A stretch of DNA of 64,000 nt, from assembly GCA_035084275.1 (NCBI GenBank), contig CM068755.1, positions 10,850,001 through 10,914,000 on the forward strand, written 5' to 3'. Under the pieces are notes generated by a model. That model was not told where the DNA came from and searched no databases. It saw only the letters and a program-made list of their open reading frames with translations. Shown here piece by piece: positions 50,095 through 51,435 of this stretch (the first letter of the stretch is position 1; every line of letters starts with the position of its first letter). The stretch comes from Hydrolagus colliei. Lineage: Eukaryota. Position numbers and translations under genes: made by a program.

Positions 50095-51028
50095 GAGGTT
50101 TGTGGAGGAAACATTTCGCTTGTCAAGTTTCCAACGTTTCATTCCCACTCTCTCGCAACGAGTTAAAACACTGACCATTCTTATCGGCGTCTTATGATCC
50201 CCCCCAAAAAAGCAAACTTCAACAGGGTATCGAGTTCCTCTCTCGCCCACCCCACCCCACCCCACCCAGGCATTCGTTTCAATAGAAACGCCGGCCTTGA
50301 TCATTTCCTGAGTTTACAGGAACGAGCGTTTTATTCGCTACTGAGCAGAAATCAGCCCACAAAACACAAACACAAGTAAACAGAAGGGAGACCCCCAACT
50401 GTGAACAAACACACCTAGAACAACACTGGGAACAGAACCTCAGACCACTCACACACACACACACTCACACACACGTAATGAAAATGTTTTTTTTATTCGA
50501 CAAACACGAATAAAAGTTGCAAATACTGTACAGCTAAACTCTCTCTCCACCCCCCCCCCCCCCCCCAACACACACAGGAAAAAAGCCAAGCAGTTAAAAG
50601 CTACAAACCTTTTTCAATGCTTCCCATTAGCTATTCGGAGACAGACAGAGAGAGAGAGAGAGAGTGAGAGAGGGAATCCTTATTCGGATAGCAAATCAGA
50701 TGTAATAATAATAATAATAATAATAATGATTTTTTTTTGTTAATAAAAATCTATTTTTTAAAAAAAAAACACCACCGCCGCGGATAGAATGGAGAAACGT
50801 AGCTTCGCCTTGTTTAATCTTTAATTCGTAAAGAGAGAGAAAGAGTGATAGAGAGAGAGAGACAGAGGTAGAGGTAGAGAGAGAGAGATGTTGTCTCTGT
50901 GTCAGGGAGTCTCAGTCAGCATCTCTCCCATGCCTCTCTCAGAGAGCTGGCTGCTGCCTGGCTATGGTGTGTGTCAGTGCTGTGTGTGTTGTACTGTACA
51001 CAGGGCGGAGAGGCGCTGGATTCCTGTG

Positions 51029-51200
51029 TGACGTGAGGAGGGGAGGGGAGGAGAAGGGGGGGGGGGGGGGGGGGGGGGGGGGAGAGGAGCCCGGGGGCCG
51101 GGGAGGAGCTTCAAACAGGGACCGGTAAACAGAGAGGTAAACAGGGCAGCGACAGAGGCCAATCAGCAGAGTATAAATCAAGCGGCGCCGCGCAAGGCTG
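51029..51200 (+). promoter_or_regulatory. Pol II core promoter inside an intron of the TMEM2-like gene
   Basis: CRE-like TGACGTGA 51029-51036, poly-G tract, two forkhead sites GTAAACA (51125-51131, 51137-51143), CCAAT 51159-51163, TATAAA 51172-51177, CpG-rich downstream. Confidence 0.7.
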
Positions 51201-51435
51201 AGCTACAAGAGCGGCTGCTGCACACAGCGCTACAGCCACAGACACTGGCTCTCTCTGTCTGTCTATAATCTATCTGTGTGTGTGTGTGTGTGAGTGTTGT
51301 GTGTACAGAGCGTCCCCAGCCACATCAATCCCTCCTCTCTCCCTCCCTCCCTCTCTCCCAACCCAAACCCAAACCCAGCATTGAGTGCAAAGCACCGGCT
51401 ACTTTGGTGGCTCCCTCCAGCATCCAAAGTGACAG
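51200..51435 (+). other. Putative non-coding first exon driven by the 51.17 kb TATA promoter
   Basis: Starts about 25-30 nt after the TATA box (inferred). No ATG seen. Ends at donor CAG|GTACCC (51435/51436). Confidence 0.45.

Follow-up and report, generated by a model that had tools for sequence, protein, structure and literature searches.

A gene of the CEMIP family in the window, by which we mean the whole 64,000-nt stretch of Hydrolagus colliei DNA analysed here, carries a compact TATA-bearing promoter-like element (50940–51435) between its coding exons ending at 47348 and beginning at 52704. This host gene is a third paralogue, ‘CEMIP2-like’, apart from CEMIP and CEMIP2. We consider it probable, if only somewhat so, that the element is an old TATA promoter and first exon shared by CEMIP2-like and CEMIP, the two paralogues being interleaved. 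Judging from the gene models of other species, it is likely that the element is transcribed and that both a near acceptor in CEMIP2-like and a far acceptor in CEMIP are used. The element comprises the following features:

51029–51036, plus strand: candidate CRE-like site TGACGT(GA), TGACGTGA, a motif read from the sequence
51056–51082, plus strand: run of 27 guanines (G27), read from the sequence
51124–51144, plus strand: two candidate forkhead-type sites, GGTAAACAG (GTAAACA at 51125 and 51137), 12 nt apart
51159–51177, plus strand: CCAAT at 51159, then 8 nt, then TATAAA at 51172, read from the sequence
51200–51435, plus strand: predicted non-coding first exon X, from GAGCT to the weak donor CAG/gtaccc, with a Callorhinchus milii counterpart

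The preliminary description of this DNA had named a CRE-like site, a poly-G run, two GTAAACA copies, CCAAT and TATAAA, and each was found where it had been placed. The TATAAA at 51172 is the only one of 96 such hexamers on the two strands to have more than 50% GC on both of its 100-nt flanks. The composite GTAAACA..CCAAT..TATAAA occurs window-wide only at the element (two matches that overlap; 100 shuffles give an expectation of 0.01) and the tandem GGTAAACAG pair occurs once in the window against 0.00 expected; both patterns were taken from the site itself, so these counts overstate the significance. Microsatellites and runs of G or C surround the element, which lies below the CpG-island cut-off used, and an Rfam scan gave no family there.

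Exon X is predicted to start near the GAGCT at 51200, 28 nt past the start of the TATA box. There is no ATG anywhere in 50965–51781, and the predicted ATG-free exon is ∼236 nt long, in agreement with the earlier account of an ATG-free segment of about 235 nt ending in a donor at 51435 (CAG/gtaccc). The distance from TATA box to donor is 264 nt. This donor is weak, scoring 6.1 where 12 true donors score 5.9–12.6, and it ranks in the top 2.9% of the 3646 plus-strand GT sites. Three GTs before the next acceptor (51756, 51991 and 52570) score above it, so the end of exon X is uncertain. Those at 51756 and 52570 are donor-like (CAG/GTGTG) and could serve as alternative exon ends.

Joining 51435 to 52704 makes two out-of-frame ATGs, opening ORFs of 41 and 24 codons, upstream of the in-frame Met, which lies at +114. 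The longer of these ORFs overlaps the in-frame Met, and one of the two ATGs is made at the junction itself; the junction ATG is absent from C. milii, whose G8 exon begins differently. The joined sequence bears out the statement in the preliminary description that a splice to 52704 would give no signal peptide and a first ATG out of frame.

The exon map of the host gene was obtained by laying the C. milii protein on the window, and the resulting frames are open. The gene and its upstream surroundings are as follows:

15319–29430, plus strand: coding span of the upstream neighbour, ABHD17C (ORFs near 15319–15786, 25450–25625 and 29212–29430)
31750–32250, plus strand: CpG-rich stretch, candidate promoter of the long CEMIP2-like transcript (CpG o/e 0.69 against 0.37 for the window)
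33123–33190, plus strand: CEMIP2-like coding exon 1 with the start Met (91% identity to residues 1–23 of C. milii P0001; open joined frame)
34221–34549, plus strand: CEMIP2-like exon with a 17-residue hydrophobic segment, a likely signal peptide or signal anchor (mapped to the C. milii protein)
39582–40061, plus strand: CEMIP2-like exon for a paralogue-specific helical domain with two invariant Cys (from orthologues)
47298–47348, plus strand: 51-nt CEMIP2-like exon, the last coding one upstream of the element (P0001 residues 294–311)
52704–52844, plus strand: first G8 exon of the CEMIP2-like gene, with the near acceptor; contains the internal Met of annotated short isoforms
53346–62489, plus strand: nine more CEMIP2-like coding exons, the gene continuing past the window end (open frame, Pfam)

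We take the upstream neighbour to be ABHD17C, judging by its protein and by the ABHD17C entries that fall in one cluster with a CEMIP2-like protein; Pfam gave no match for its first exon. The CpG-rich stretch at 31750–32250 sits ∼1 kb upstream of the first CEMIP2-like coding exon. From 52704 onward the host gene has a stop-free frame of 642 residues, in which Pfam identifies G8 and ILEI/GG domains (PF10162, E 6e-23; PF15711, E 6e-19). One exon within it, 60907–61035, ends in a GC donor (AAG/gcgagt) in the open-frame model. The element lies in the fourth coding intron (47349–52703), 1.3 kb upstream of the first G8 exon. It had been placed between a ‘TM exon’ and the G8 exon; the position stands, but the coding exons 39582–40061 and 47298–47348 also intervene after 34221–34549.

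The label ‘TM exon’ itself is probably not right. The hydrophobic run is 12–20 residues long in 28 orthologues, whereas that of CEMIP2 has 24, and it resembles a signal peptide more closely. It is followed by RxxR in 21 of the 28 orthologues and, in the tetrapod ones, by small residues of the kind usual at cleavage sites. Given the shorter run, the small residues in tetrapods and the RxxR in most orthologues, we consider it likelier that 34221–34549 encodes a signal peptide and pro-region than a TMEM2-type anchor. The window's own copy of the RxxR region (39582–39700) reads YRRDVW, without the second Arg of C. milii. The helical domain, of ∼110 residues, is found only in the CEMIP2-like paralogue and is modelled with a pLDDT of ∼90 over residues 61–150. 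Pfam has no match for it, and a fold search gave no clear match (best Foldseek E 1.1, best VIA Z 4.7, best Atlas 0.85), which does not make it a new fold.

The host protein is 91% identical to the C. milii CEMIP2-like protein over 605 columns; exon 53346–53904 alone shows 90% identity to C. milii and 66–72% to sharks and rays. A tree of 36 rows, taken from a quick search and with CEMIP2 represented by three mammals only, separates a CEMIP clade (100), a CEMIP2 clade (100) and a CEMIP2-like clade that includes the window (99). The last holds 18 rows and is sister to CEMIP2 (SH-aLRT 91). On this phylogeny the host gene is a third paralogue. The earlier name, ‘TMEM2-like’, fits the G8 and ILEI domains and the sister relationship to CEMIP2, but the gene falls outside the CEMIP2 clade. 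It belongs among the genes of non-mammalian jawed vertebrates that RefSeq automatically names ‘cell surface hyaluronidase CEMIP2-like’. CEMIP itself is described as hyaluronan-degrading and raised in cancers in PMC3435267. The listings from our search of the open literature contained no paper on the CEMIP2-like paralogue or on a shared exon.

When a frog protein was used as query, 110 CEMIP2-like rows scored above the first mammalian CEMIP2. Among fishes they come from cartilaginous fishes, bichir, sturgeon, gar, bowfin, elopomorphs, coelacanth and lungfish, and among tetrapods from amphibians including Xenopus, turtles, lizards, crocodilians and birds. There is no mammal or snake among these 110 rows; the search was word-seeded, so this absence is moderate evidence. 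The CEMIP2-like gene has apparently been lost in mammals and snakes, and Xenopus (X. tropicalis) has kept both genes. CEMIP is expected just beyond the window end, because three fused models (catshark, swallow and sturgeon) have CEMIP2-like followed by CEMIP on the same strand and the locus tags of the two genes are adjacent in several species. Keyword searches of the supplements to PMC7587653, PMC7023467 and PMC13188829 returned no gene coordinates, and a passage of PMC10035218 contained none.

A Bufo bufo RefSeq protein named CEMIP (P0026) has ∼1100 residues of CEMIP2-like followed by ∼400 of CEMIP, which reflects either read-through splicing or an assembly gap. Two lamprey proteins, P0086 and P0087, branch near CEMIP, and one of them starts out CEMIP2-like and turns CEMIP-like further along. 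These hint at a tandem pair older than jawed vertebrates; their composition is atypical and their placement unsure.

Cross-species evidence for use of the element was drawn from the translated 5′ ends of automatic gene models. For a splice to the near acceptor, at least 11 RefSeq isoforms start at the Met inside the first G8 exon, in at least nine of 23 chondrichthyan species (counted by hand among the entries listed); C. milii X4 is one of them. Such short forms are met repeatedly, in chimaera, in sharks and in rays. Among the matches listed, they are absent in 14 of the 23 species and are the only CEMIP2-like form in Carcharodon and Mobula birostris. Such isoforms imply that the G8 exon is spliced to a non-coding 5′ end, which need not be exon X.

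Other lineages offer similar joins. In kakapo, a GC-rich exon is spliced to the G8 exon in RefSeq forms X1, X2 and X5, which leave out ∼75 nt that an Ensembl model for kakapo reads through; the exon spliced to the G8 exon in Rana X3 is TATA-compatible. Skink, turtle and bird models have GC-rich sequence immediately 5′ of the G8 exon, and models of skink, frog and woodpecker have TATA-compatible segments at the corresponding place in the gene. The 5′ ends of the short forms differ widely among lineages. Two C. milii Ensembl models (P0112 and P0115) begin with the translated element, with 12 of 15 residues identical (z 13, 0 of 150 shuffles), which places the element at the same gene position in that species. 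The intron near 52560–52703 is about as well kept in C. milii as the element, so the match does not demonstrate selection.

For the far splice, the CEMIP models in viper, in dog and for two copies in X. laevis (RefSeq X1 and the L copy) run through a TATA-compatible segment, with 183–228 nt from TATA box to join. In human CEMIP, according to PMC3435267, the TATA box is at −31, the transcription start is GG[A]GCT, the ATG is in exon 2 and intron 1 is 94 kb long. This agrees with the non-coding exon 1 and very long intron 1 that the preliminary description had given for the human gene. From a primer lying over the donor consensus in the same source, the human exon would end at about +244, giving ∼275 nt from TATA box to donor, against 264 nt in the window.

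Homology between these 5′ segments was assessed with back-translated model extensions. The viper CEMIP segment and the skink pre-G8 segment share 8 of 15 residues after the anchor (p = 0.0002, over 32 tests and with a hand-picked anchor), and the pair was the best of 60 in a frameshift-tolerant test (z 3.5, 1 of 100 shuffles); the same comparison without the anchor gave p = 0.14. Aligning the element to other CEMIP first exons, as the preliminary description had suggested, brought both CCAAT and TATA of the X. laevis L extension into line with those of the window. Its p of 0.002 was the best of 72 pairs, five of which were below 0.05, but it becomes ∼0.14 once corrected for the 72 pairs and is then not significant. 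Compared as DNA, the window and the CEMIP-joined extensions gave no significant match (dog 8/150, X. laevis L 22/150, X. laevis S 55/150, viper 120/150). In a back-translation search of the whole window, none of 11 extensions had its best match at the element, and the ungapped flanks in the window matched none of the extensions. By eye, the CEMIP extensions of Hemicordylus and Podarcis are unlike the CEMIP2-like extensions of the same species. A Pelusios match (z 4.2) was set aside, its score being driven by a TG repeat. We also rejected the N-terminal extension of Carcharodon and Cetorhinus CEMIP as the 3′ end of exon X, 25 of 150 shuffles scoring as high; it probably lies in exon 2, since two transcripts share it.

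Near and far joins are thus both present in models of other species, and the one same-species hint is in Carcharodon. There, the accessions are consecutive, with CEMIP entered as isoform X1 and the short CEMIP2-like protein as X2. This numbering, as if of one locus, hints at a shared exon; the hint is weakened because other sharks (Cetorhinus, Heterodontus, catshark and others) have the two genes numbered as separate loci. In sharks, frogs and lizards, many entries for CEMIP list more than one transcript per protein, or other first coding exons, and CEMIP therefore has further 5′ exons. The joins in viper, dog and human would also fit a later capture of the promoter, because the paralogue seems lost in those lineages.

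We propose that the locus has two promoters and could yield three products: the full CEMIP2-like protein, a short CEMIP2-like protein and CEMIP. An upstream promoter, perhaps the CpG-rich stretch at 31750–32250, would drive the full-length CEMIP2-like protein. The internal TATA promoter would produce a pre-mRNA whose first donor chooses between the near G8 acceptor and the far CEMIP acceptor. Splicing to the near acceptor, over 1.3 kb, would give a signal-less protein starting inside G8, and because an overlapping out-of-frame ORF precedes the internal Met, this product may be poorly translated, probably a by-product or a tuning route. Splicing to the far acceptor would skip the remaining CEMIP2-like exons and their poly(A) site, reach CEMIP exon 2 and give normal secreted CEMIP, which is the likelier reason for the promoter having been kept. 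In mammals, and apparently in snakes, loss of CEMIP2-like would have left the exon far from CEMIP exon 2.

The preliminary description had set CEMIP exon 1 and a TM-less isoform against each other as alternatives. Each use has models in other species, but the choice between them falls away, both uses being likely. Its suggestion that the paralogues are interleaved gains real but indirect support from the tandem order, the TATA-bearing CEMIP 5′ exons, the viper–skink match and the lack of any mammal among the 110 rows, whereas the direct homology of the element to CEMIP first exons is not significant after correction.

The element might instead be an internal promoter of CEMIP2-like only, with CEMIP exon 1 lying downstream and with mammals and snakes capturing the element later. 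The short isoforms annotated in at least nine of the 23 chondrichthyan species agree with this, as do the several CEMIP 5′ variants of sharks, frogs and lizards and the occurrence of the clearest far joins in lineages without the paralogue. We nevertheless think it rather unlikely. It requires at least two independent captures, and in Xenopus, which has both genes, the first exon of CEMIP bears CCAAT and TATA that line up with those of the window. The Carcharodon products are numbered as one locus. Furthermore, a short product lacking a signal peptide and part of G8, and preceded by an overlapping ORF, would be a poor reason for keeping a promoter.

If the element were the first exon of CEMIP only, the near splice would be a functionless leak or annotation noise, as the out-of-frame ATG at the junction and the missing signal peptide might suggest; 14 of the 23 species have no short isoform among the matches listed, and the 5′ ends of those that exist vary widely by lineage. 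We judge this unlikely, and less probable than a promoter of CEMIP2-like only, given that short forms recur in chimaera, sharks and rays and are the sole form listed in Carcharodon and M. birostris, and that C. milii, with a different G8 exon start, has no junction ATG. It is very improbable, in our estimate, that the element acts as an enhancer within the intron, marks where an unrelated non-coding RNA begins, or came about as a chance clustering of motifs within low-complexity sequence. The microsatellites and G/C runs, the weak donor, the position below the CpG-island cut-off and a conservation in C. milii no better than that of the intron at 52560–52703 would all be in keeping with that. 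Against it stand a motif cluster unique within the window, the TATA-compatible segments at the same gene position in the skink, frog and woodpecker models, and the lack of an Rfam family at the element.

Our preferred reading, a promoter and first exon shared by the two paralogues, can be extended to the history of the family. We advance this extension tentatively, at a little less than an even chance: since the origin of jawed vertebrates, CEMIP would have been transcribed from a promoter inside its tandem paralogue, with a splice choice switching between secreted CEMIP and the signal-less form, and mammals and snakes would each have lost the inner gene, the 94-kb intron being its footprint. 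If true, the distant first exon and long intron 1 of CEMIP are the remains of a lost paralogue. We know of no intact paralogue inside this 94-kb intron of human CEMIP. Deleting or silencing CEMIP2-like in chicken, Xenopus or shark could then remove the CEMIP promoter, and read counts of CEMIP2-like and CEMIP could be mixed. The analysis also brings into view a third family member with an N-terminal domain of its own.

The arrangement has a parallel in the unc-17/cha-1 locus of Caenorhabditis elegans where, according to PMC3875643, one 5′ untranslated exon serves two genes, being joined either to the gene inside the long first intron or, past it, to the outer gene. The likeness lies in a single strand and in one exon with an inner or an outer acceptor, the sharing being our reading of the data in the present case. 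In relatives, the same strand and the order of inner gene before outer coding exons are seen in the three fused models; CEMIP is outside the window. The two cases differ in that the partners at unc-17/cha-1 are unrelated and the inner gene is wholly intronic, whereas here they are tandem paralogues, interleaved rather than nested. The inner gene here is not wholly within the first intron: four of its coding exons, and probably its own promoter, precede the putative shared exon.

Comparison with the human CEMIP promoter and exon 1, again from PMC3435267, shows a TATA box ∼30 nt before a GAGCT start (predicted in the window) and a TATAAA closely followed by AGCGG in both, and in both a non-coding exon of ∼240 nt, likewise predicted in the window, with the ATG in exon 2, located past ABHD17C. 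The human promoter differs in being a CpG island with AP-1 at −48/−45, where the window has candidate forkhead-type, CCAAT and CRE-like sites. The host gene resembles CEMIP2/TMEM2 in its G8 and ILEI (GG) domains and as a sister clade. It differs in forming its own clade (99), in the length of its hydrophobic segment (12–20 against 24 residues), in the extra helical domain of ∼110 residues and in adjoining ABHD17C and CEMIP.

A metagenome scan with the G8 exon gave no confirmed relatives among 69 candidates. A scan with the last ABHD17C exon returned 80 loci; none of them contained an exon of the CEMIP family or resembled the element convincingly, and the best one from a vertebrate stops 4.2 kb past the gene. 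One sequencing run, not recorded as RNA, matched 47000–54000 in pieces, as DNA-like contigs that run through introns, none of them spanning the whole stretch or carrying other letters. In the ABHD17C 3′ UTR, a 39-nt block (∼30671–30709) is 95% identical to a distant vertebrate locus (L001, 11385–11423), with smaller blocks nearby. Four tRNA-like Rfam matches, at 4664–4739, 12916–12985, 23979–24050 and 58614–58685, fall in introns or flanks and are probably the heads of tRNA-derived repeats.
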